Made by a program: the position numbers and the translations under genes. The notes beneath the pieces were generated by a model that was given only the letters and a program-made list of their open reading frames with translations, was not told the origin of the DNA and searched no databases. From the NCBI RefSeq assembly GCF_013315695.1, contig NZ_CP054353.1: DNA of 64,000 nt; one strand, given 5' to 3'. This document shows, piece after piece, positions 20,830 through 49,971 of the stretch (the first letter of the stretch is position 1; every line of letters starts with the position of its first letter). The DNA is from Escherichia coli (GTDB taxonomy: Bacteria > Pseudomonadota > Gammaproteobacteria > Enterobacterales > Enterobacteriaceae).

Positions 20830-20950
20830 GATTTCGTCCTTATTAAGGTGGTTATTTACACCTTAGCGCAAAGCGGATGTGGTTCCTACTGGAGTGCGCA
20901 TAACGAACACAAGCACTCTCGTGGATAAATTGAGAACGAAAGATCAAAAA

Positions 20951-21040
20951 AAAAGCCAGCACCCGGCTGGCTAAGTAATACTGGAAGCAATGTGAGCAAT
21001 GTCGTGCTTTCAGGTTCTCCGCGAGGGTCTTCCTGATCGC
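20951..21040 (-). ncRNA. ryhB: RyhB small RNA (Fur-repressed, Hfq-dependent)
   Basis: Reverse complement of 20951..21040 reads GCGATCAGGAAGACCCTCGCGGAGAACCTGAAAGCACGACATTGCTCACATTGCTTCCAGTATTACTTAGCCAGCCGGGTGCTGGCTTTT, the RyhB sequence as I know it, ending in a GCCAGC/GCTGGC terminator hairpin and U-tract. ORF-track entries 20852..21100 and 21010..21225 across it are spurious. Confidence 0.9.
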
Positions 21041-21065: not shown

Positions 21066-21162
21066 GCACTTGTCCAACACTTTTTGCAAAAAAAATGCAT
21101 TTGACTCGCATTTGAAAGTCAATGATGTTGAAAGGGACATTTACCCCAAAGAGGACAAAGGA

Positions 21163-21651
21163 ATGAGTGAGATAGTAATACGCCATGCTGAAACGCGGGA
21201 CTACGAGGCCATCAGGCAGATTCACGCCCAGCCGGAGGTGTATTGCAACACACTACAGGTGCCTCATCCTTCCGATTATATGTGGCAGGAGCGACTCGCC
21301 GATCGTCCCGGCATCAAGCAACTTGTCGCCTGTATTGATAGAGACGTCGTGGGCCATCTCACTATTGACGTGCAACAACGCCCACGCCGCAGTCATGTTG
21401 CCGATTTTGGTATCTGTGTCGACTCTCGCTGGAAGAACCGCGGCGTCGCCAGCGCCCTGATGCGCGAAATGATTGATATGTGCGACAACTGGTTGCGGGT
21501 AGATCGTATCGAGCTAACGGTGTTCGTCGATAACGCGCCAGCAATTAAGGTCTATAAAAAATTCGGCTTTAAGATTGAAGGGACTGGCAAAAAGTACGCA
21601 TTACGTAATGGTGAATATGTCGATGCGTATTATATGGCGCGGGTGAAGTAA
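21163..21651 (+). CDS. yhhY: GNAT-family N-acetyltransferase
   Basis: ORF track starts at TTG 21070; ATG at 21163 with AAGGA RBS gives the 162-aa protein MSEIVIRHAETRDYEAIRQIH... Confidence 0.9.
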   Translation: MSEIVIRHAETRDYEAIRQIHAQPEVYCNTLQVPHPSDYMWQERLADRPGIKQLVACIDRDVVGHLTIDVQQRPRRSHVADFGICVDSRWKNRGVASALMREMIDMCDNWLRVDRIELTVFVDNAPAIKVYKKFGFKIEGTGKKYALRNGEYVDAYYMARVK

Positions 21652-21886
21652 GATAGTGCCCTTTTTCTGAGATGGAAAAAGGGCGTCATTCAAAATCGGC
21701 ATATCTTCCTTTAATGTATTTATTTGCCCAATAAATATATTGAGATTTACCTCATAATTACGTCCTAAAGTGTAATATTTTATTATTAATATATACGCCT
21801 ACAATTTCCTGGAGTAAATAAATAACAATTAACAAGCATAATAGTGCCATTAATAAAATAGCATGCCATAAAAGGACTTTTCAGGG

Positions 21887-23065
21887 ATGAGTAATATTGT
21901 TTACCTGACAGTAACGGGAGAACAACAAGGAAGCATCTCCGCAGGTTGTGGGACTTCTGAGTCTACAGGTAATCGCTGGCAGAGCGGGCATGAGGATGAA
22001 ATATTTACATTCTCACTCTTAAATAGTATTACTAATACGGGGCTTGGTTCACAGTTCCATGGTATAACATTTTGTAAATTAATTGATAAAAGCACTCCAT
22101 TATTTATTAATTCCATTAACAATAATGAACAATTATTTATGGGATTTGACTTCTATCGAATAAATAGATTTGGTAGATGGGAAAAGTATTATTATATACA
22201 ACTAAGAGGCGCTTTTTTATCGGCTATTCATCATCAGATCATTGAAAATCAACTGGATACAGAAACAATAACTGTTAGTTATGAATTTATCCTCTGTCAA
22301 CATATTATCGCAAATACCGAGTTCAGCTATTTGGCACTCCCTGAAAATTATAACTGTTTGTTTTTACCAAATTCAAAAAACCAAACAAATAATCGTTTCA
22401 AAACGTTAAACAGCAAAGCTATTGGCAGGCTACTTGCTGCTGGTGGCGTATACAATGGGAACATTGAAGGATTCAGAGATACTGCGGAAAAACTGGGTGG
22501 AGATGCAATAAAAGGCTATGATCAAATACTAAATGAAAAAACAGCGGGCATAGCGATAGCAACAGCATCTATTCTTTTAACAAAGCGTTCTAATGTTGAT
22601 ACATATACAGAAATAAATAGTTACTTAGGCAAACTTAGAGGTCAACAAAAACTTCTTGATGGTATAGACATAATAGAAATAATATACATTAAGAGACCTT
22701 CAAAAGACTTAGCTAACTTACGAAAGGAGTTTAATAAAACTGTAAGAAAAAATTTTCTTATCAAACTTACAAAAACCTCCGAAGCATCTGGAAGATTCAA
22801 CGCCGAAGACCTTTTAAGAATGAGAAAGGGCAATGTTCCTCTAAATTATAATGTTCACCATAAACTATCTCTAGATGATGGTGGTACTAATGATTTCGAA
22901 AATTTAGTATTAATCGAAAACGAACCATATCATAAAGTTTTTACTAACATGCAATCACGAATAGCTAAGGGAATATTAGTAGGTGAAAGCAAAATCACTC
23001 CCTGGGCCATTCCATCTGGCTCAATTTATCCTCCCATGAAAAATATTATGGAACCCACAAAATGA
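21887..23065 (+). CDS. yhhZ: Hcp-family (T6SS tube-like) protein with C-terminal HNH-type nuclease motif; orphan Hcp-toxin fusion
   Basis: 392 aa; Hcp-like N-terminus MSNIVYLTVTGEQQGSISAGCGTSESTGNRWQSGHEDEIFTF; C-terminal NYNVHHKLSLDDGGTNDFENLVLIENEPYHKVF (HH..N..H pattern); AT-rich codon usage. Confidence 0.85.
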   Translation: MSNIVYLTVTGEQQGSISAGCGTSESTGNRWQSGHEDEIFTFSLLNSITNTGLGSQFHGITFCKLIDKSTPLFINSINNNEQLFMGFDFYRINRFGRWEKYYYIQLRGAFLSAIHHQIIENQLDTETITVSYEFILCQHIIANTEFSYLALPENYNCLFLPNSKNQTNNRFKTLNSKAIGRLLAAGGVYNGNIEGFRDTAEKLGGDAIKGYDQILNEKTAGIAIATASILLTKRSNVDTYTEINSYLGKLRGQQKLLDGIDIIEIIYIKRPSKDLANLRKEFNKTVRKNFLIKLTKTSEASGRFNAEDLLRMRKGNVPLNYNVHHKLSLDDGGTNDFENLVLIENEPYHKVFTNMQSRIAKGILVGESKITPWAIPSGSIYPPMKNIMEPTK

Positions 23066-23556
23066 TGACTAAAACCCAAATAAATAAATTAAAAAAAATG
23101 ATGAATGATTTAGACTATCCATTTGAAGCACCGCTCAAGGAATCATTTATTGAAAGTATAATCCAAATAAAATTTAATTCTAATTCAACTAATTGCCTGG
23201 AGAAGTTATGTAATGAAGTTAGTATTCTCTTTAATAATCAACCTGATTATCTTACTTTTTTAAGAGCAATGGATGGATTCGAAGTTAATGGATTACGATT
23301 ATTCAGCCTCTCGATTCCAGAACCTTCAGTTAAAAACCTTTTTGCCGTAAATGAATTTTATAGAAATAATGATGATTTCATAAACCCTGATCTACAAGAA
23401 CGGTTAGTGATCGGGGATGATAGCATTTCAATATTTACTTATGACATTAAAAATAACTTTTTTGAAATTAGAGATAATATTGGCACAGAAAATATATTCA
23501 GTTCGTTTAGTGATTTCTCTTCATTCTTAAACGAAATCATGGACAGTTGTTCATAA
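23062..23556 (+). CDS. yrhA: Hypothetical protein, candidate immunity protein for the YhhZ nuclease
   Basis: 164-aa ORF whose ATG overlaps the yhhZ stop (ATGA); AT-rich; immunity role inferred from arrangement only. Confidence 0.65.
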   Translation: MMTKTQINKLKKMMNDLDYPFEAPLKESFIESIIQIKFNSNSTNCLEKLCNEVSILFNNQPDYLTFLRAMDGFEVNGLRLFSLSIPEPSVKNLFAVNEFYRNNDDFINPDLQERLVIGDDSISIFTYDIKNNFFEIRDNIGTENIFSSFSDFSSFLNEIMDSCS

Positions 23557-24005
23557 TAATCAAAAGGTAACAAAAATCATTATAAACCATGCCATCTTTT
23601 TAGAGATTACCAGCAGAAAATTCCTTGTTCGAAACTTAGCAATGCAAGCTATGGAAAAACTTACAACGGAACTACACTCCTTAAGTGAGATGGACCGAAG
23701 ACATGTAATCTCTATTTTAGCCGAAATAGCTAATGGCTATGATGATTTTAGTGACATGTTGATTTAGTTAGAATTTCACCCGAATCATAAGATTCTGATA
23801 TCTTAAATAAGAAAATCCCGTTCGACGTTCTGAAAAAGAAATCACAAAACATTAGCAGATACTTATTTCGTGACTGTATATTATCCGATGAACTTTTTTC
23901 AAAACCAGCATTTAATAATATCTTTGACGAAGATGAACGCGTCTTTTCTCAAAGTATAACGCAAGAATAATAATATAACGATCAACAATAATATTTATTA
24001 TAATT

Positions 24006-24290
24006 ATGATTACTTATCACGACGCATTCGCGAAAGCGAACCATTACCTTGATGATGCAGATCTCGCCGTCATCATTACTCTACATGGACGCTTTAGCCA
24101 GGGCTGGTATTTCTGTTTCGAAGCACGAGAATTTCTCGAAACTGGTGATGAGGCCGCGCGTTTAGCCGGTAACGCACCTTTTATTATTGATAAAGACAGT
24201 GGTGAAATTCATTCCCTTGGAACGGCAAAGCCGCTGGAAGAATATCTACAGGATTATGAAATAAAAAAGGCTACCTTCGGCTTGCCCTGA
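24006..24290 (+). CDS. yrhB: YrhB-family small protein (reported heat-stable chaperone-like protein)
   Basis: 94-aa ORF MITYHDAFAKANHYLDDADLAVIITLHGRFSQGWYFCFEAREFLETGDEAARLAGNAPFIIDKDSGEIHSLG..., recognised as YrhB. Confidence 0.8.
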   Translation: MITYHDAFAKANHYLDDADLAVIITLHGRFSQGWYFCFEAREFLETGDEAARLAGNAPFIIDKDSGEIHSLGTAKPLEEYLQDYEIKKATFGLP

Positions 24291-41092: not shown

Positions 41093-42151
41093 TTATTCAG
41101 GCGTAAAGTGGCGTAAATGTTGTACCGTGGCAAGCCACGCTGCCACCCAGCCAATCATCGAGCATACCAGCAGCAATAGCAGGCATTCATCGAACGATAA
41201 GCCATTGATATCAAACTTTGTTCCGAAAACCTGTGCCACTTCCGCAACCGCCGATGACAAACGCAGTACCAGAATTTCTGACAAAATTAGTGACAACAAT
41301 GCGCCAGAAAATCCCAGCAGTGCGCCACCGTACAGGAACGGGCGCAGGATGAAACCATCCGTCGCACCAATCAGTTTCTGCACGTTAATGGAGTCACGGC
41401 GAGCAAAGATACTCAGGCGCACACTGTTACCGATGACGAGGAACACTGCCGCCACCATCAACACGCCGATCATCGCGGAAACGCGCCCGACCAGCCCGGT
41501 TAACGCCGCCAGACGGGCAAACCAGCTGTCATCCATCCGCACTTCGTCAATGCCGTTGATCTGGGTGATACGATCACGCAGCGTATTCAGTGATTCCGTC
41601 CCCTGAAAATCGAGTTTCGGGATCACCACCGCCACTGCCGGAAGCGGGTTTTCTTCCAGCATATCCAGCGCACCACCAAAACCAGACCAGTTACGGAACT
41701 CGCCCAGTGCGTCTTCACGAGAAAGATAATTCACTTTCTCCACGCCTTGCTCAGCCTGCAACTGTGCCACCACGCCCGCAGCGGCGTCATCATCCAGCGT
41801 TTTTTGCAGATAAACAGTGATTTGCGGTGACGGATAATATTGCGTCGCCGCCTGGTTAACGTTTTTGTACACCATATAACAGACGCTGGGCAGCGTCAGG
41901 GAGATGGCGATAACCATCACCGTTAAAAACGTGGCGAACGGTTTGCTTTTCAGATCTTGCAATGCGCCGTGGAAGGCATAGCGCACCTGTTCGTTGAAAA
42001 CGTTGGTTTTGCGATTTACCGGTTTTGGCGAGGATTTCGCACGTTTCGGCGCGTTACGACCGCCGTCGCCAGAGCCGCCGACCGATTTACGGAAGCGATC
42101 CAGACGCCCGCCAAACTGCCGAATATGATTGATTGCATCGCGCTTATTCAT
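41093..42151 (-). CDS. ftsX: Cell-division ABC-transporter-like permease
   Basis: ATG at 42151 gives 352 aa [20 protein letters not shown]...; ORF track starts 9 codons upstream; overlaps the ftsE 3' end. Confidence 0.95.
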
Positions 42152-42812
42152 GGCCCACGCCTCCATGCAAGTGACCATCGCTCAGGGTGAGCATGCGATA
42201 GGAACGCCGCGAGATCAGGTTGATGTCGTGCGTTGCCATCAATACGGTTACCCCAACGCGGTTAAACTCTTCAAACAGCCGTAGAATCCCTTCCGACAAC
42301 GCGTCGTCCAGGTTACCGGTCGGTTCGTCCGCCAGCAATACCGCGGGCTTGTTCACCACCGCGCGGGCAATGCCAACACGCTGTTGTTCACCGCCCGAAA
42401 GCTGAATAGGGAAGTTCTTCGCTTTGTCCAGTAGCCCGACTTTATCCAGCGCCGCCGACACCCGGCGACGAATATCGTCACCGCTGGCACCGGCGATAAT
42501 CAGCGGGATCGCCACGTTATCGTAGACGGTACGGTCCATCAGCAGATGGTGATCCTGAAAAATCATACCGATCTGACGACGCAGAAATGGCACCTCGCGA
42601 TTTTTCAGTCGCGTGATGTCATGGCCGCTAAACCAGATTTTCCCAGCACTGGGCCGCTCAATCCCACAAATCAGCTTCAGGAGGGTACTTTTCCCTGCGC
42701 CGGAATGACCGGTCAGAAACGCCATCTCACCCGGCTGCATATGGAACGTCACGCCCTGCAGCGCTTGCCTCCCACCGAGATAAGCCTTGCTGACATGTTC
42801 AAAGCGAATCAT
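42144..42812 (-). CDS. ftsE: Cell-division ATPase
   Basis: 222-aa ORF; Walker [10 protein letters not shown] and LSGGEQQRV signature. Confidence 0.97.
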
Positions 42813-42814
42813 TG

Positions 42815-44329
42815 TTAATCCTCTCGGGCAAAAAGTGCCTCAATAAAGTCGTCCGCTTTAAACGGACGCAAATCCTCAATACGTTCGCCGACACCAATGT
42901 AGCGGATAGGAATACCAAACTGGTCAGCCACCGAGAAAATTACCCCACCTTTCGCTGTACCGTCCAGTTTCGTCAACGTAATGCCGGTTAAACCAACCGC
43001 TTCGTGGAACAGTTTGGCCTGGCTTACCGCATTCTGCCCGGTGCTGGCGTCAATTGTCAGCATAACTTCATGCGGGGCTTCAACGTCGAGCTTCTTCATC
43101 ACGCGGACGATTTTCTTCAGCTCTTCCATCAGGTGCGATTTGTTCTGCAAACGTCCGGCGGTATCGGCAATTAATACGTCGATGTTACGTGCCTTCGCAG
43201 CCTGAATGGCATCGAAGATAACAGAGGCAGAATCGGCACCAGTATGCTGAGCAATCACCGGAATATTGTTGCGCTGGCCCCAGACCTGAAGCTGTTCAAC
43301 CGCTGCCGCACGGAAGGTATCGCCCGCCGCCAGCATCACCGATTTACCCTGCTGCTCAAACTGACGCGCCAGCTTACCGATAGTGGTGGTTTTACCCACG
43401 CCGTTGACGCCTACCATCAGGATCACAAACGGCGCTTTGCCTTCGACGTTAAGCGGTTCATCGACTTTTGCCAGAATCTCGCCCATCTCTTCTTTCAACA
43501 GGCCGTAGAGCGCCTCAGCATCGCGAAGCTGCTTGCGGGTCGCGCCTTCGGTCAGATTAGTGATGATTTTGCGCGTAGTTTCCACACCCACGTCGGCAAT
43601 GAGCAGTTGTTCTTCCAGCTCTTCAAACAGATCATCGTCGATTTTTTTGCCACGGAACAGGCTGATAAATCCTGAACCGAGGTTTTCTTTAGTCTTCAGA
43701 AGGCTGCGTTTCAGGCGCGCGAAGAAACCTTCTTTGGTTGGTTTTTCCTGCTCCTGGGCAATTTCTTCAACCAACGGCTCTTCTTCTACCGCAGGAACAA
43801 GCTCCACCGCCTCTTCTGCGGCTTCATCAGCCAACGCCTGCGCTTCCAGCTCTTCGTCGGTAATCTCTTCTTTTGCCGCTTCTTCTTCCGCCGCGTCGAC
43901 AATCTCTACCGTTTCTGCTTCTGCCTGCCATTCTTCTGGCGAAATCTCTTCGGCTTTGACTTCTTCCGGCAGCGGTTGCTCTTCACGCTCACTAGCCACA
44001 GGCTCAGGTGTGGCTTCAGATTCAACTACCGGTTCCGGCTCTGCAATAACTTCCGGTTCGCTAACCGCTTCCGGCTGCGCTTTTTCGTTTTCGGCAACCT
44101 GTTCAGTGACTTGAACGACGTCGGCAGCGAAAGTTTCCGCCTCTGCTTCAGTATGTGTCTGAGGCAGCTCTTCTGTAGGCTGTTCAGCGACCTTCGCAGG
44201 CTCTTGCGCCTGAACGGTCTCTTCTACAACCGGTTGATCGTTCTGGACTTCTGTCTCTTTTTCCGGGGTCTGCTCTTTTTGACCAAAGCCCAGCCAGGAA
44301 AAAAAGCCACGTTTTTTTTCTTTCGCCAT
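42815..44329 (-). CDS. ftsY: Signal recognition particle receptor
   Basis: 504-aa ORF; acidic Glu/Ala-rich N-domain; GTPase motifs GVNGVGKTTTIGKLA and DTAGR. Confidence 0.95.
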   Translation of the reverse strand: MAKEKKRGFFSWLGFGQKEQTPEKETEVQNDQPVVEETVQAQEPAKVAEQPTEELPQTHTEAEAETFAADVVQVTEQVAENEKAQPEAVSEPEVIAEPEPVVESEATPEPVASEREEQPLPEEVKAEEISPEEWQAEAETVEIVDAAEEEAAKEEITDEELEAQALADEAAEEAVELVPAVEEEPLVEEIAQEQEKPTKEGFFARLKRSLLKTKENLGSGFISLFRGKKIDDDLFEELEEQLLIADVGVETTRKIITNLTEGATRKQLRDAEALYGLLKEEMGEILAKVDEPLNVEGKAPFVILMVGVNGVGKTTTIGKLARQFEQQGKSVMLAAGDTFRAAAVEQLQVWGQRNNIPVIAQHTGADSASVIFDAIQAAKARNIDVLIADTAGRLQNKSHLMEELKKIVRVMKKLDVEAPHEVMLTIDASTGQNAVSQAKLFHEAVGLTGITLTKLDGTAKGGVIFSVADQFGIPIRYIGVGERIEDLRPFKADDFIEALFARED

Positions 44330-44481
44330 CTGCGACTACACTCCTCGCTGTTGCTTCATGGCACAGCGTTAACGACGCTATGTACATAGCAGCTATAAAA
44401 ATGATGAAATAGTCTATCACTTAACTTAATTCACATCACCGCCTGCAAGTATGTGTTAACAGGCGGATTGAGCAAATTGTC

Positions 44482-45078
44482 ATGAAAAAACCGAATCATT
44501 CCGGCAGCGGCCAAATCCGCATTATTGGCGGTCAGTGGCGAGGCCGTAAACTCCCGGTTCCGAATAGCCCTGGTCTGCGCCCCACCACCGATCGCGTACG
44601 TGAAACGCTGTTTAACTGGCTGGCGCCAGTCATTGTTGATGCGCAATGTCTGGATTGTTTCGCCGGCAGCGGCGCACTGGGGCTGGAAGCCTTGTCGCGC
44701 TACGCTGCGGGGGCTACGCTGATTGAGATGGAGCGCACAGTTTCTCAGCAGTTAATCAAAAATCTGGCGACGCTGAAAGCAGGCAATGCACGCGTGGTGA
44801 ACAGTAATGCGATGTCATTCCTGGCGCAAAAAGGTACGCCGCATAATATCGTATTTGTCGATCCGCCATTCCGTCGTGGCTTGTTAGAAGAGACGATTAA
44901 TTTACTGGAAGATAACGGCTGGCTGGCTGACGAAGCCTGGGTTTATGTCGAAAGCGAAGTCGAAAACGGTCTGCCCACCGTTCCGGCAAACTGGTCGTTA
45001 TATCGCGAAAAAGTAGCGGGTCAGGTTGCTTATCGCCTGTATCAACGTGAAACACAAGGAGAAAGTGATGCTGATTAA
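44482..45078 (+). CDS. rsmD: 16S rRNA (guanine966-N2)-methyltransferase
   Basis: 198-aa ORF; SAM-binding LDCFAGSGALGLEALSRYA and DPPF motif. Confidence 0.93.
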   Translation: MKKPNHSGSGQIRIIGGQWRGRKLPVPNSPGLRPTTDRVRETLFNWLAPVIVDAQCLDCFAGSGALGLEALSRYAAGATLIEMERTVSQQLIKNLATLKAGNARVVNSNAMSFLAQKGTPHNIVFVDPPFRRGLLEETINLLEDNGWLADEAWVYVESEVENGLPTVPANWSLYREKVAGQVAYRLYQRETQGESDAD

Positions 45079-45337
45079 TATTGGACGCTTGTTAATGCTC
45101 TGCGTATGGGGATTTTTAATCCTTAATATTTTTCAGCCCTTCCCACGCCCGCTGAATATTTTCGTTAATGTGGCGCTGATTTTTACCGTGCTGATGCATG
45201 GTATGCAACTGGCGCTATTGCAATCGACCTTACCAAAAGATGGCCCGCAGATGACGACCGCCGAAAAGGTGCGTATTTTCCTTTTCGGCGTGTTTGAACT
45301 GTTAATCTGGCAGAAGAAATTTAAAGTTAAAAAATAG
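45068..45337 (+). CDS. yhhL: Small inner-membrane protein (DUF1145)
   Basis: ATG at 45068 gives 89 aa MLINIGRLLMLCVWGFLILNIF...; overlaps the rsmD 3' end by 11 nt. Confidence 0.85.
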   Translation: MLINIGRLLMLCVWGFLILNIFQPFPRPLNIFVNVALIFTVLMHGMQLALLQSTLPKDGPQMTTAEKVRIFLFGVFELLIWQKKFKVKK

Positions 45338-45339
45338 CG

Positions 45340-45699
45340 TTATTGCTCACCAACAAAGCTGACAAAGCGCGTTCCTTTATAGCTCAGCGTACCTTTCTCC
45401 CCCACCGTCAGGGCGTGGTACTGCTGAGCATCAAGGCGGAAGGTCTGCTCCAGCCCGCCGCTTTGCGGTTTGAAACTTGCCTCATAGCGCATGCTGGTTC
45501 CAGCCGGAGTGACCTCCTGCTGACGCGAACGGCGATCGTTAATCGGTTTTTCCCGCTTGTTGCTCACCACCACCAGCTTTTGCTGGAGCGGAGCCATATC
45601 ATTATCAGCTTTTTCCCGTCGCTGCTGCATAAAGCGAAACGATGCAGCGACAATAATTAAGCCAATGATAACAATAAAGAAAAGAGGTGGTTTACTCAT
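45340..45699 (-). CDS. yhhM: DUF2500-family protein with N-terminal membrane anchor
   Basis: 119-aa ORF MSKPPLFFIVIIGLIIVAASFRF... Confidence 0.85.
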   Translation of the reverse strand: MSKPPLFFIVIIGLIIVAASFRFMQQRREKADNDMAPLQQKLVVVSNKREKPINDRRSRQQEVTPAGTSMRYEASFKPQSGGLEQTFRLDAQQYHALTVGEKGTLSYKGTRFVSFVGEQ

Positions 45700-45839
45700 C
45701 GTTATCCCTCATCGGAAAATGAGGAAATAAGCATACCCTGCCAGTTATGGTGTTGTCATCCGTCCACCCTCGCCACTAAACTGGAGGCAAGACCGTAAGC
45801 ATTCCGCTTACGAAAAAATAACGAATTCAAGGAACTAAG

Positions 45840-46466
45840 ATGCTTTGGTCGTTTATCGCTGTCTGTCTTTCCGCATGGCTATCTGTGGATGCATCGTATC
45901 GTGGGCCAACCTGGCAACGCTGGGTGTTTAAACCGTTAACCCTTCTTCTCCTGCTGTTGCTGGCCTGGCAAGCGCCGATGTTCGACGCCATTAGCTATCT
46001 GGTGCTGGCGGGGCTGTGTGCCTCACTGCTGGGCGATGCGCTAACCCTGTTGCCACGTCAACGTCTGATGTACGCCATCGGCGCGTTTTTCCTCTCGCAC
46101 CTGCTGTACACCATCTATTTCGCCAGTCAGATGACGCTCTCCTTCTTCTGGCCTCTGCCGTTGGTGCTGTTGGTTCTGGGCGCGCTGTTACTGGCGATTA
46201 TCTGGACGCGTCTGGAAGAGTATCGTTGGCCTATCTGCACGTTTATCGGCATGACGCTGGTGATGGTGTGGCTGGCAGGTGAACTGTGGTTCTTCCGTCC
46301 GACCGCTCCGGCACTCTCTGCGTTTGTCGGCGCTTCGTTGCTGTTTATCAGTAACTTTGTCTGGCTGGGTAGTCACTATCGCCGACGCTTCCGTGCGGAC
46401 AACGCGATTGCTGCGGCCTGCTACTTTGCTGGTCACTTCCTCATCGTCCGCTCGCTGTATCTCTGA
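45840..46466 (+). CDS. yhhN: YhhN-family (TMEM86-like) integral membrane protein
   Basis: 208-aa polytopic membrane ORF. Confidence 0.88.
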
Positions 46467-46539: not shown

Positions 46540-48738
46540 ATGTCGACTCCTGACAATCACGGCAAGAAAGCCCCTCAATTTGCTGCGTTCAAACCGCTAA
46601 CCACGGTACAGAACGCCAACGACTGTTGCTGCGACGGCGCATGTTCCAGCACGCCAACGCTCTCTGAAAACGTCTCCGGCACCCGCTATAGCTGGAAAGT
46701 CAGCGGCATGGACTGCGCCGCCTGTGCGCGCAAGGTAGAAAATGCCGTGCGCCAGCTTGCAGGCGTGAATCAGGTGCAGGTGTTGTTCGCCACCGAAAAA
46801 TTGGTAGTCGATGCCGACAATGACATCCGTGCCCAGGTTGAATCTGCGGTGCAAAAAGCGGGCTATTCCCTGCGCGATGAACAGACCACCGACGAACCAC
46901 AAGCATCACGCCTGAAAGAGAATCTGCCGCTGATTACGCTAATCGTGATGATGGCAATCAGCTGGGGTCTGGAGCAGTTCAATCATCCGTTCGGGCAACT
47001 GGCGTTTATCGCGACCACGCTGGTTGGGCTGTACCCGATTGCTCGTCAGGCATTACGGCTGATCAAATCTGGCAGCTACTTCGCCATTGAAACCTTAATG
47101 AGCATAGCCGCTATTGGGGCGCTGTTTATTGGCGCAACGGCTGAAGCTGCGATGGTGTTGCTGCTGTTTTTGATTGGTGAACGACTGGAAGGCTGGGCCG
47201 CCAGCCGCGCGCGTCAGGGCGTTAGCGCGTTAATGGCGCTGAAACCAGAAACCGCCACGCGCCTGCGTAACGGTGAGCGTGAAGAGGTGGCGATTAACAG
47301 CCTGCGACCTGGCGATGTGATTGAAGTCGCCGCAGGTGGGCGTTTGCCTGCCGACGGTAAACTGCTCTCACCGTTTGCCAGTTTTGATGAAAGCGCCCTG
47401 ACCGGAGAATCCATTCCTGTGGAGCGCGCGACGGGCGATAAAGTTCCTGCAGGCGCCACCAGCGTAGACCGTCTGGTAACGCTGGAAGTGCTGTCAGAAC
47501 CGGGTGCCAGCGCCATTGACCGGATTCTGAAACTGATCGAAGAAGCCGAAGAGCGTCGCGCCCCCATTGAGCGGTTTATCGACCGTTTCAGCCGTATCTA
47601 CACGCCAGCGATTATGGCCGTCGCCCTGCTGGTAACGCTGGTGCCGCCGCTGCTGTTTGCCGCCAGCTGGCAGGAGTGGATTTATAAAGGGCTGACGCTG
47701 CTGCTGATTGGTTGCCCGTGTGCGTTAGTTATCTCCACGCCCGCGGCGATTACCTCCGGGCTGGCGGCAGCAGCGCGTCGTGGGGCGTTGATTAAAGGCG
47801 GCGCGGCGCTGGAGCAGCTGGGTCGTGTTACCCAGGTGGCGTTTGATAAAACCGGTACGCTGACCGTCGGTAAACCGCGCGTTACCGCGATTCATCCGGC
47901 AACGGGTATTAGTGAATCTGAACTGCTGACACTGGCGGCGGCGGTCGAGCAAGGCGCGACGCATCCACTGGCACAAGCCATAGTGCGCGAAGCACAGGTT
48001 GCTGAACTCGCCATTCCCACCGCCCAATCACAGCGGGCGCTGGTCGGGTCTGGCATTGAAGCGCAGGTTAACGGTGAGCGCGTGTTGATATGCGCTGCCG
48101 GAAAACATCCTGCTGATGCATTTGCTGGTTTGATTAATGAACTGGAAAGCGCCGGGCAAACGGTAGTGCTGGTAGTACGTAATGATGACGTGCTGGGTGT
48201 CATTGCGTTGCAGGATACCCTGCGCGCCGATGCTGCAACTGCTATCAGTGAACTGAACGCGCTGGGCGTCAAAGGGGTGATCCTCACCGGCGATAATCCA
48301 CGCGCCGCGGCGGCAATTGCCGGGGAGCTGGGGCTGGAATTTAAAGCGGGCCTATTGCCGGAAGATAAAGTCAAAGCGGTGACCGAGCTGAATCAACATG
48401 CGCCGCTGGCGATGGTCGGTGATGGTATTAACGACGCGCCAGCGATGAAAGCCGCCACCATTGGGATTGCAATGGGCAGTGGCACAGACGTGGCGCTGGA
48501 AACCGCCGATGCAGCATTAACCCATAACCACCTGCGCGGCCTGGTGCAGATGATTGAACTGGCACGCGCCACTCACGCCAATATCCGCCAGAACATCACC
48601 ATTGCGCTGGGGCTGAAAGGCGTTTTCCTCGTCACCACACTGTTAGGAATGACCGGGCTATGGCTGGCGGTGCTGGCAGATACGGGTGCGACGGTGCTGG
48701 TGACAGCGAATGCGTTAAGATTGTTGCGCAGGAGATAA
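46540..48738 (+). CDS. zntA: Zn(II)/Cd(II)/Pb(II)-exporting P-type ATPase
   Basis: 732-aa ORF; N-terminal GMDCAACARKVE metal-binding motif, CPC motif GCPCALVISTP, phosphorylation site DKTGTLT. Confidence 0.97.
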   Translation: MSTPDNHGKKAPQFAAFKPLTTVQNANDCCCDGACSSTPTLSENVSGTRYSWKVSGMDCAACARKVENAVRQLAGVNQVQVLFATEKLVVDADNDIRAQVESAVQKAGYSLRDEQTTDEPQASRLKENLPLITLIVMMAISWGLEQFNHPFGQLAFIATTLVGLYPIARQALRLIKSGSYFAIETLMSIAAIGALFIGATAEAAMVLLLFLIGERLEGWAASRARQGVSALMALKPETATRLRNGEREEVAINSLRPGDVIEVAAGGRLPADGKLLSPFASFDESALTGESIPVERATGDKVPAGATSVDRLVTLEVLSEPGASAIDRILKLIEEAEERRAPIERFIDRFSRIYTPAIMAVALLVTLVPPLLFAASWQEWIYKGLTLLLIGCPCALVISTPAAITSGLAAAARRGALIKGGAALEQLGRVTQVAFDKTGTLTVGKPRVTAIHPATGISESELLTLAAAVEQGATHPLAQAIVREAQVAELAIPTAQSQRALVGSGIEAQVNGERVLICAAGKHPADAFAGLINELESAGQTVVLVVRNDDVLGVIALQDTLRADAATAISELNALGVKGVILTGDNPRAAAAIAGELGLEFKAGLLPEDKVKAVTELNQHAPLAMVGDGINDAPAMKAATIGIAMGSGTDVALETADAALTHNHLRGLVQMIELARATHANIRQNITIALGLKGVFLVTTLLGMTGLWLAVLADTGATVLVTANALRLLRRR

Positions 48739-48839
48739 GGCAAACCGATCGCAACATTGAGCGCGATCGGTCCCCTCGCTCCTCTGGGGAGAGGGTTAGG
48801 GTGAGGGGAAAAGGCGGCATCGAAGCCAATCTTTCCCCA

Positions 48840-49305: not shown

Positions 49306-49971
49306 ATGAACGTTTTCTCGCAAACGCAACGCTATAAGGCGTTGTTCTGGTTATCGTTATTTCATCTTCTGGTGATCACCTCCAGTAACTATCTGGTTCA
49401 GCTTCCCGTCTCCATTTTTGGTTTCCATACCACCTGGGGCGCGTTTAGCTTTCCGTTTATTTTCCTTGCTACCGACCTGACTGTGCGTATTTTTGGCGCA
49501 CCGCTGGCTCGTCGCATCATCTTTGCGGTAATGATCCCCGCATTGCTGATCTCCTACGTCATCTCATCGCTGTTTTATATGGGGTCATGGCAAGGATTCG
49601 GCGCGCTCGCCCACTTCAACCTGTTTGTCGCCCGTATCGCCACCGCCAGTTTCATGGCCTACGCGCTGGGGCAGATCCTCGACGTGCACGTTTTTAACCG
49701 CCTGCGTCAGAGTCGTCGCTGGTGGCTGGCACCGACGGCTTCCACCCTGTTTGGTAACGTCAGCGACACGCTGGCCTTCTTCTTCATTGCCTTCTGGCGC
49801 AGCCCGGATGCCTTTATGGCTGAACACTGGATGGAAATCGCGCTGGTCGATTACTGTTTCAAAGTGTTAATCAGTATCGTTTTCTTCCTGCCAATGTATG
49901 GCGTATTACTCAATATGCTGTTGAAAAGACTGGCAGATAAATCCGGAATCAACGCTTTGCAGGCGAGTTAA
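49306..49971 (+). CDS. yhhQ: Queuosine-precursor transporter (COG1738 membrane protein)
   Basis: 221-aa polytopic membrane ORF. Confidence 0.9.
   Translation: MNVFSQTQRYKALFWLSLFHLLVITSSNYLVQLPVSIFGFHTTWGAFSFPFIFLATDLTVRIFGAPLARRIIFAVMIPALLISYVISSLFYMGSWQGFGALAHFNLFVARIATASFMAYALGQILDVHVFNRLRQSRRWWLAPTASTLFGNVSDTLAFFFIAFWRSPDAFMAEHWMEIALVDYCFKVLISIVFFLPMYGVLLNMLLKRLADKSGINALQAS

Follow-up and report, generated by a model that had tools for sequence, protein, structure and literature searches.

The window analysed here is a stretch of 64,000 nucleotides from the Escherichia coli contig NZ_CP054353.1 (RefSeq assembly GCF_013315695.1), and the features discussed below are collected in Table 1. 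The open reading frame at 42815..44329 is an ordinary SRP receptor FtsY with the known acidic, length-variable front part. It had been assigned to ftsY from the sequence alone, and the assignment is confirmed by the NCBIfam equivalog TIGR00064 (385.8 bits, cutoff 260.7; residues 229–500 matched) and by two Pfam domains, the helical bundle PF02881 (SRP54_N) at residues 217–282 (E 4.4e-15) and the SRP54-type GTPase PF00448 at residues 300–500 (E 1.2e-79). The P-loop GVNGVGKTT is present, and residues 1–216 gave no Pfam domain match. Among solved structures, 5GAD and 2YHS, two full-length entries for E. coli FtsY, align with the protein at E 1e-285; most constructs in the solved FtsY structures begin at query residues 201–232, and the full-length sequence is contained in two entries only. 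The same gene is annotated as WP_001040609.1 in NZ_CP146670.1, a record with 100% identity. Downstream of it, ftsE and ftsX lie on the same strand, and rsmD is divergent, in synteny with the ftsYEX operon of K-12. The equivalog score, the N and G domains with their P-loop and the ftsYEX/rsmD context thus all identify FtsY. A Rfam search of the whole window returned no match at or near ftsY, the sole match being RyhB elsewhere.

Table 1. Features of the ftsY locus and of the surrounding recombinant block (positions in the window).
Feature	Position	Strand	Basis and remarks
ftsY CDS, SRP receptor	42815..44329	-	504 aa plus stop, ATG start; ORF list, TIGR00064, Pfam
Residues 1–19, including the N-terminal amphipathic lipid-binding helix	44273..44329	-	100% identical to K-12; helix role from PMC4602035, PMC2928010
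Acidic low-complexity tract of the A domain, residues 20–196	43742..44272	-	composition, K-12 alignment
A-N junction lipid-binding helix, residues 202–214 (K-12 195–207)	43688..43726	-	identical to K-12; function from PMC2928010
Indel 1, 12 nt, VSEP, residues 89–92	44054..44065	-	absent in K-12, ST648 and PSJ-07; CGGAAG...CGGAAG flanks
Indel 2, 6 nt, EA, residues 105–106	44012..44017	-	absent in K-12
Indel 3, one codon, Q164	43838..43840	-	absent in K-12
Spurious antisense ORF, 193 aa, Ser/Ala-rich	43533..44114	+	TTG start, codon mapping, no NCBIfam match
Recombinant block, E. albertii origin	42522..45798	.	informative sites, difference profiles; covers the ftsE 5' third, ftsY, rsmD, yhhL, yhhM
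Left junction	42502-42521	.	inside ftsE
Right junction	45799-45907	.	yhhM-yhhN spacer
ftsE	42144..42812	-	first ~100 codons inside block; 0 aa differences vs E. coli
rsmD	44482..45078	+	inside block; 7–8 aa differences vs K-12/ST648, 0 vs E. albertii L085
yhhL	45068..45337	+	inside block; 5 aa differences vs E. coli, 0 vs E. albertii
yhhM	45340..45699	-	inside block; 2–4 aa differences vs E. coli, 0 vs E. albertii

The front part of FtsY is built from few kinds of amino acids. Residues 20–190 contain 30.4% Glu, 15.8% Ala, 12.3% Val, 9.4% Pro and 7.6% Gln, and these five amino acids make up 75% of this segment compared with 33% of residues 197–504. The Shannon entropy is correspondingly 3.16 bits for residues 20–190 and 3.96 bits for residues 197–504, and the net charge of the former segment is -51. 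The original prediction had spoken of a segment dominated by E, A, V, P and Q repeats; the dominance of these residues holds, while the word repeats does not, as TRF run at its lowest score threshold reported only two overlapping two-copy arrays (unit 25–29 nt, scores 36–44), and a defined tandem-repeat unit was therefore rejected. The bias of the acidic tract is compositional and not of the tandem-repeat type. In-frame pairs of 8-mer direct repeats lying within 150 nt of each other occur at 18.8 per kb in the DNA encoding the A domain versus 1.1 per kb in the NG part, a difference of about 17 times. Beyond codon composition there is no excess of such short direct repeats, as 10 pairs were observed compared with 14.6 +/- 7 in codon shuffles. 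A special enrichment of direct repeats was consequently rejected, and their density is a by-product of the composition.

The FtsY protein of K-12 (b3464; PDB 2QY9, 1FTS, 2YHS, 5GAD) is encoded by the same gene in the same ftsYEX operon, has the same A-N-G order and, with 30.4% Glu, has the same acidic composition. The K-12 length of 497 aa, as given in the original prediction, is correct (ftsY of MG1655 has 1494 nt), and the alignment that had been proposed as a check reveals that both length and sequence of the two proteins differ. The protein in the window is longer by seven residues, which are contributed by three in-frame indels. Identity to K-12 FtsY is 100% in residues 1–19, 79.7% in residues 20–196 and 99.7% in residues 197–504: the acidic tract carries 29 substitutions, and the NG part shows the single change S264T. 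The junction KEGFFARLKRSLLKTKENL is the same as in K-12, with F203 corresponding to K-12 F196. Synonymous divergence from K-12 ftsY, determined with the Nei-Gojobori method, is about 0.5 throughout the gene (dS is 0.477 for the acidic tract and 0.495 for the NG part), with omega values of 0.185 for residues 20–196 and 0.006 for residues 197–504. As dS is equal in both parts, purifying selection on the acidic tract is about 30 times weaker than on the GTPase core. Some constraint nevertheless acts on the acidic tract as well.

That the A domain of FtsY is acidic, dispensable and variable in length has been known for decades and is textbook knowledge. It mediates the attachment of FtsY to the membrane by binding of anionic phospholipids, and its lipid binders are two helices, of which one, amphipathic, is N-terminal and the other is located at the A-N junction (PMC4602035; PMC2928010). 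The latter comprises K-12 residues 195–207, of which Phe196 is required (PMC2928010). A flexible stretch of the A domain, residues 143–176, cross-links to the C5 loop of SecY (PMC4602035; PMC2928010). The A domain is non-essential in E. coli and many bacterial FtsY homologues lack it; FtsY-NG+1 complements FtsY depletion, and the remaining A domain alters lipid stimulation only about twofold (PMC4602035; PMC2928010). The acidic linker between the helices is probably flexible or disordered, as indirectly suggested by the lack of a Pfam match and by the start of most crystallised constructs at residues 201–232; flexible is also the term used in the literature (PMC4602035). In the alleles of E. 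coli and E. albertii compared here, both lipid-binding helices are invariant and the linker varies in sequence and in length, which agrees with the literature on the A domain. The A domain may accordingly be pictured as two conserved amphipathic helices, at residues 1–14 and at the A-N junction, joined by an acidic linker that contacts SecY as well; being much less constrained than the NG core, this linker tolerates substitutions and in-frame indels. SRP receptors of other bacteria and of archaea have acidic, disordered extensions at their N-terminus, which are described as likewise charged, poorly conserved and membrane-attaching, and as being, similar to the A domain, variable in length and sometimes absent (PMC4602035).

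The length comparison presented here covers Enterobacterales only. A total of 80 loci from species representatives of this order were scanned, and FtsY could be delimited in 73 of these species. Total FtsY length ranges from 456 to 576 aa; the segment between the GFFxRL junction motif and the end of the protein measures 304 aa in 71 of the 73 species, and the N-terminal (A) part varies from 152 to 272 aa (SD 28.8). The tract had been called a length-variable region, and this description is fully supported by the family. Length differences also exist within E. coli: in a spread sample of 30 genomes, ftsY alleles of 1488, 1494, 1497 and 1515 nt were found, and the E. coli proteins range from 458 to 504 aa, with 495 aa for the ST648 allele and 458 aa for the allele of strain PSJ-07. 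Protein cluster members named E. coli or Shigella add lengths of 466, 481, 490, 491 and 498 aa.

All three length differences between the window protein and K-12 (+4, +2 and +1 aa) lie within the acidic A domain. The VSEP segment, the largest of them, is shared by all non-coli Escherichia lineages sampled (5/5, among them E. albertii and E. whittamii), and in Salmonella and Citrobacter a wider stretch is missing around it. Because VSEP is found in all five non-coli Escherichia lineages sampled, its loss in E. coli sensu stricto is more probably the course of events than a gain, being the more parsimonious, though the outgroups do not settle the polarity. Two further deletions give an impression of how such differences may arise. 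In PSJ-07, a 117-nt deletion is bounded in the DNA alignment by two CAGAAGAG octamers and removes K-12 residues ~128–166, which means that most of the SecY-contact stretch can go in a wild isolate; the 9-nt deletion of ST648 sits in GAAG-rich sequence. The GAA/GAG/GCN-rich low-complexity composition by itself supplies the microhomologies, at which slipped-strand or microhomology-mediated deletion and duplication could occur; of these, the in-frame events would be kept and appear as length variation. Judging from three indel junctions, slippage or microhomology is the likely source of the length variation in this tract.

Strains of E. coli usually differ from each other by a dS far below 0.5. 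In a megablast search of 5,426 complete E. coli genomes, ftsY was found in 5,425, and the window gene is at least 99% identical to that of five genomes and 88–89% identical to that of the other 5,420. A 12-kb query around the gene retrieved the same five genomes, MS 21-1, MSB1_4I, OZ547117, OZ546925 and OZ546911, all at 100.0% identity, followed by ST648-type genomes at 96.6%. Compared with ST648, the closest E. coli background, the window shows 0–4 differences per 100 bp outside ~42500–45800 and 5–34 per 100 bp inside, and in a four-way alignment the picture is reversed for the E. albertii type strain, with 0–3 differences per 100 bp inside the block and 5–20 per 100 bp outside. At the 676 sites at which ST648 and E. 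albertii differ, the window carries the albertii-type base in 313 of 325 cases inside the block and in 20 of 351 outside (Fisher p ~1e-148). The divergent sequence reaches 1.5 kb past ftsY into rsmD, yhhL and yhhM and ends at sharp junctions. The comparison with E. albertii covers ~8 kb around the ftsY locus.

In the scan of species representatives, the best relative is E. albertii NBRC 107761, the type strain, whose FtsY is 99% identical, likewise has 504 aa, differs at 3 aa and shows the same indel pattern; in several other E. albertii genomes the protein is identical to that in the window. What separates the window from E. albertii are the flanks: zntA-yhhN on one side and ftsE(3')-ftsX-rpoH on the other are E. 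coli-type and 6–10% different from E. albertii. The exact window protein is a MULTISPECIES entry found on 873 contigs, and its cluster contains further 504-aa proteins that bear the name E. albertii. Contigs encoding the exact protein fall into two classes. In the first (L086 with 16 similar places, and L092), E. coli-type flanks are identical to the window; in the second (L085, L087–L091), the flanks are 6–10% different and the block differs from the window at 1, 1, 2, 13, 15 and 15 of 3269 nt. Over 7.3 kb, the genomes of the second class share 99.0–99.4% identity with the type strain of E. albertii and are therefore taken as members of this species. The allele is present in each of the seven E. 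albertii genomes examined, where its diversity is 0.03–0.5%, and the divergence of the block from E. coli (~8–10%) matches the species-level divergence of the flanks. E. albertii is thus the species in which the allele is native and varied, and in E. coli it is both rare and uniform. The transfer accordingly went from E. albertii to E. coli, and as some E. albertii genomes differ by 1 nt in 3269, it was recent. The sharp two-sided switch, the lineage in which the allele is native and the restricted distribution among recipients together characterize the block as an import by homologous recombination. Similar to interspecies recombination tracts described in core genomes, it replaces a short colinear segment (~3.3 kb), its junctions are sharp and its donor is identifiable, and, as in known mosaic tracts, no mobile-element genes are found in it; what sets it apart is a donor that is ~8–10% diverged.

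Other explanations of the 504-aa allele have to be weighed against such an import. The occurrence of the exact FtsY protein in both species might also be expected if the block were an ancient polymorphism kept in both (incomplete lineage sorting), or if it had moved from E. coli to E. albertii. However, the block of the E. coli carriers and of some E. albertii genomes is only 1–2 nt apart in 3269, with flanks 6–10% apart, which excludes retention since speciation. The allele is moreover present in 7/7 E. albertii genomes examined versus 5/5426 complete E. coli genomes, and the block is as divergent from E. coli as the two species are in its flanks; we therefore regard either version of this explanation as highly improbable. 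Even less credit is due to the idea that the seven additional residues are a strain-level polymorphism which a native E. coli ftsY acquired locally through replication slippage. The acidic tract is indeed rich in short in-frame direct repeats, and the deletions of ST648 and PSJ-07 are in-place indels known in E. coli strains, but slippage would leave unexplained the dS of ~0.5 across the whole gene including the indel-free NG part, the identity of only 88–89% to 5420 E. coli genomes, the length and indel pattern shared with E. albertii FtsY and the continuation of the divergence into rsmD, yhhL and yhhM up to sharp junctions. On the grounds of the dS and the mosaic structure, a local origin of the +7 aa by slippage was rejected. 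The original prediction was right about the difference of 504 versus 497 aa, the cause of which could not be seen from the sequence alone: it is not local length drift of an E. coli allele, the whole gene and its neighbours being an E. albertii allele brought in by recombination. Finally, E. albertii reads merged into an E. coli assembly could produce sharp switches of affinity, as chimeric assemblies are able to do; this artefact is just as hard to believe, given that five independent complete genomes share this 12-kb mosaic at 100.0% identity, that the further assemblies with E. coli flanks (the L086 group and L092) carry it too, and that the junctions lie within syntenic, colinear sequence.

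The opposite strand of the acidic tract contains an ORF rich in Ser and Ala, which had been noticed in the original prediction and dismissed there as spurious, and rightly so. With 63 Ser and 24 Ala among its 193 aa, it lies within a stop-free run of 201 codons, and its composition follows from the sense codons: Glu codons of ftsY are read as Ser (50 codons), Ala as Ala (24), Val as Thr (16) and Pro as Gly (12). In this frame, the bases of an antisense codon are the complements of position 2 and position 1 of an ftsY codon and of position 3 of the preceding codon; hence, GAR (Glu) reads as TCN (Ser) and GCN (Ala) reads as Ala. A stop in the antisense frame requires a Tyr codon, or a His or Gln codon following a T-ending codon, and Tyr is absent from FtsY residues 20–196. 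Codon-shuffled A domains have a mean open run of 96/176 codons in the same frame, and another antisense frame of ftsY is more open still, with 3 stops in 1515 nt. The antisense ORF thus results from the way in which the genetic code reads in this frame. That a reading frame of this length encodes a real Ser/Ala-rich protein overlapping ftsY is scarcely conceivable, as each of its codons, and hence its composition, can be predicted from FtsY, it is no more open than this codon usage leads one to expect, it starts with TTG and has no NCBIfam match, and the substitution pattern (omega 0.006–0.185) fits selection on the ftsY frame.

An FtsY with its A-domain linker, contained in an E. albertii-derived block and accompanied on the opposite strand by an ORF that is an artefact of the code, explains these observations jointly, and we assign this reading a probability of about 90%. 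On this reading, the 504-aa FtsY is the standard E. albertii form and was not generated in this strain; it arrived with a single homologous-recombination tract of ~3.3–3.4 kb, in which the 5' third of ftsE, the whole of ftsY, rsmD, yhhL and yhhM, and the promoter region between ftsY and rsmD were exchanged. We infer that the import was near-neutral.

According to a recent population study, recombination between E. albertii and E. coli does not reach a level that would join the species (PMC9830988). The tract described here is a rare exception to this statement and does not contradict it. A full-text literature search found no paper naming ftsY together with albertii, and a broader search yielded nothing specific. 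The variability of the A domain and the existence of interspecies mosaic core genes are both known, and the block adds a new instance to them. It provides a clean and datable case of homologous exchange across ~10% divergence, between species reported as non-recombining at the population level. An E. albertii ftsY that is 11% divergent from other E. coli and resides in a strain labelled E. coli may mislead cgMLST, species-diagnostic PCR and k-mer assignment, and phylogenies that disregard recombination may likewise be misled by the imported block. For the function of the SRP receptor, the natural FtsY alleles of 458–504 aa represent a ready series for probing the importance of the A domain, including the 458-aa allele of PSJ-07, in which most of the SecY-contact stretch is missing. 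It is conceivable, though we consider it unlikely, that the tract is one piece of a recent and possibly repeated flow of core genes from E. albertii into an E. coli lineage that is human-associated and successful, or that selection favoured the replacement, for instance because of the FtsY A domain, of RsmD or of the ftsY-rsmD promoter region. If gene flow or selection of this kind did take place, housekeeping genes would cross the barrier between the two species more readily than tests at the population level suggest.

At the left end of the tract of Escherichia albertii origin, which begins inside ftsE, the encoded FtsE is exactly the E. coli protein, despite the E. albertii DNA over approximately the first 100 codons. 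The imported differences in this part of the gene are 100% synonymous; two residues distinguish the E. albertii FtsE, so both must be encoded beyond the imported DNA. Compared with ST648, the E. coli background closest to the window, smaller clusters of differences are found in the zntA/tusA/yhhQ region at 48100-48800 and 49500-49600, the latter with up to 11 differences per 100 bp, and both may be ordinary recombination patches within the species.

On the strand opposite to ftsY (42815..44329), the plus-strand frame of 42815 contains 3 stops in 1515 nt and its longest open run comprises 218 codons. This second antisense frame explains the listed plus-strand ORFs 43244..43675 and 43976..44389, which are by-products of the same kind as the plus-strand ORF 43533..44114.

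Further features are compiled in the table. The gene order between ggt/IS1 and yhhY is the annotated tssD, followed by yrhA, yrhB and the yrhD pseudogene. At the Rfam gathering threshold, the 64-kb window yielded no match besides RyhB.

Features of the window and the basis of their assignment
Feature	Window coordinates	Strand	Basis or remark
RyhB small RNA	20947..21011	-	Rfam RF00057, 83.1 bits (gathering score 55)
"tssD, Hcp1 family type VI secretion system effector" (392 aa), with yrhA, yrhB, yrhD	~21110..22800		annotation label
IS1A-family transposase copy	~23533..24230		annotation of the 100% identical NZ_CP146670.1 (record 374630-375327); adjoins ggt
5' part of ftsE in E. albertii tract	42522..42812		
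GntR-family regulator, PTS IIA/IIB/IIC (galactitol-type), FGGY-family kinase, HPr-like protein	~59277..63991		gene cluster past nikR, at the right end of the window

A naturally short FtsY of only 458 aa is encoded by E. coli PSJ-07 (NZ_AP027619.1, 268440-269816), in which 117 nt between two CAGAAGAG octamers have been deleted in frame, with the loss of K-12 residues ~128-166. Residues 143-176 of FtsY are the stretch reported to cross-link to SecY (PMC4602035; PMC2928010), and most of this stretch is gone in PSJ-07.
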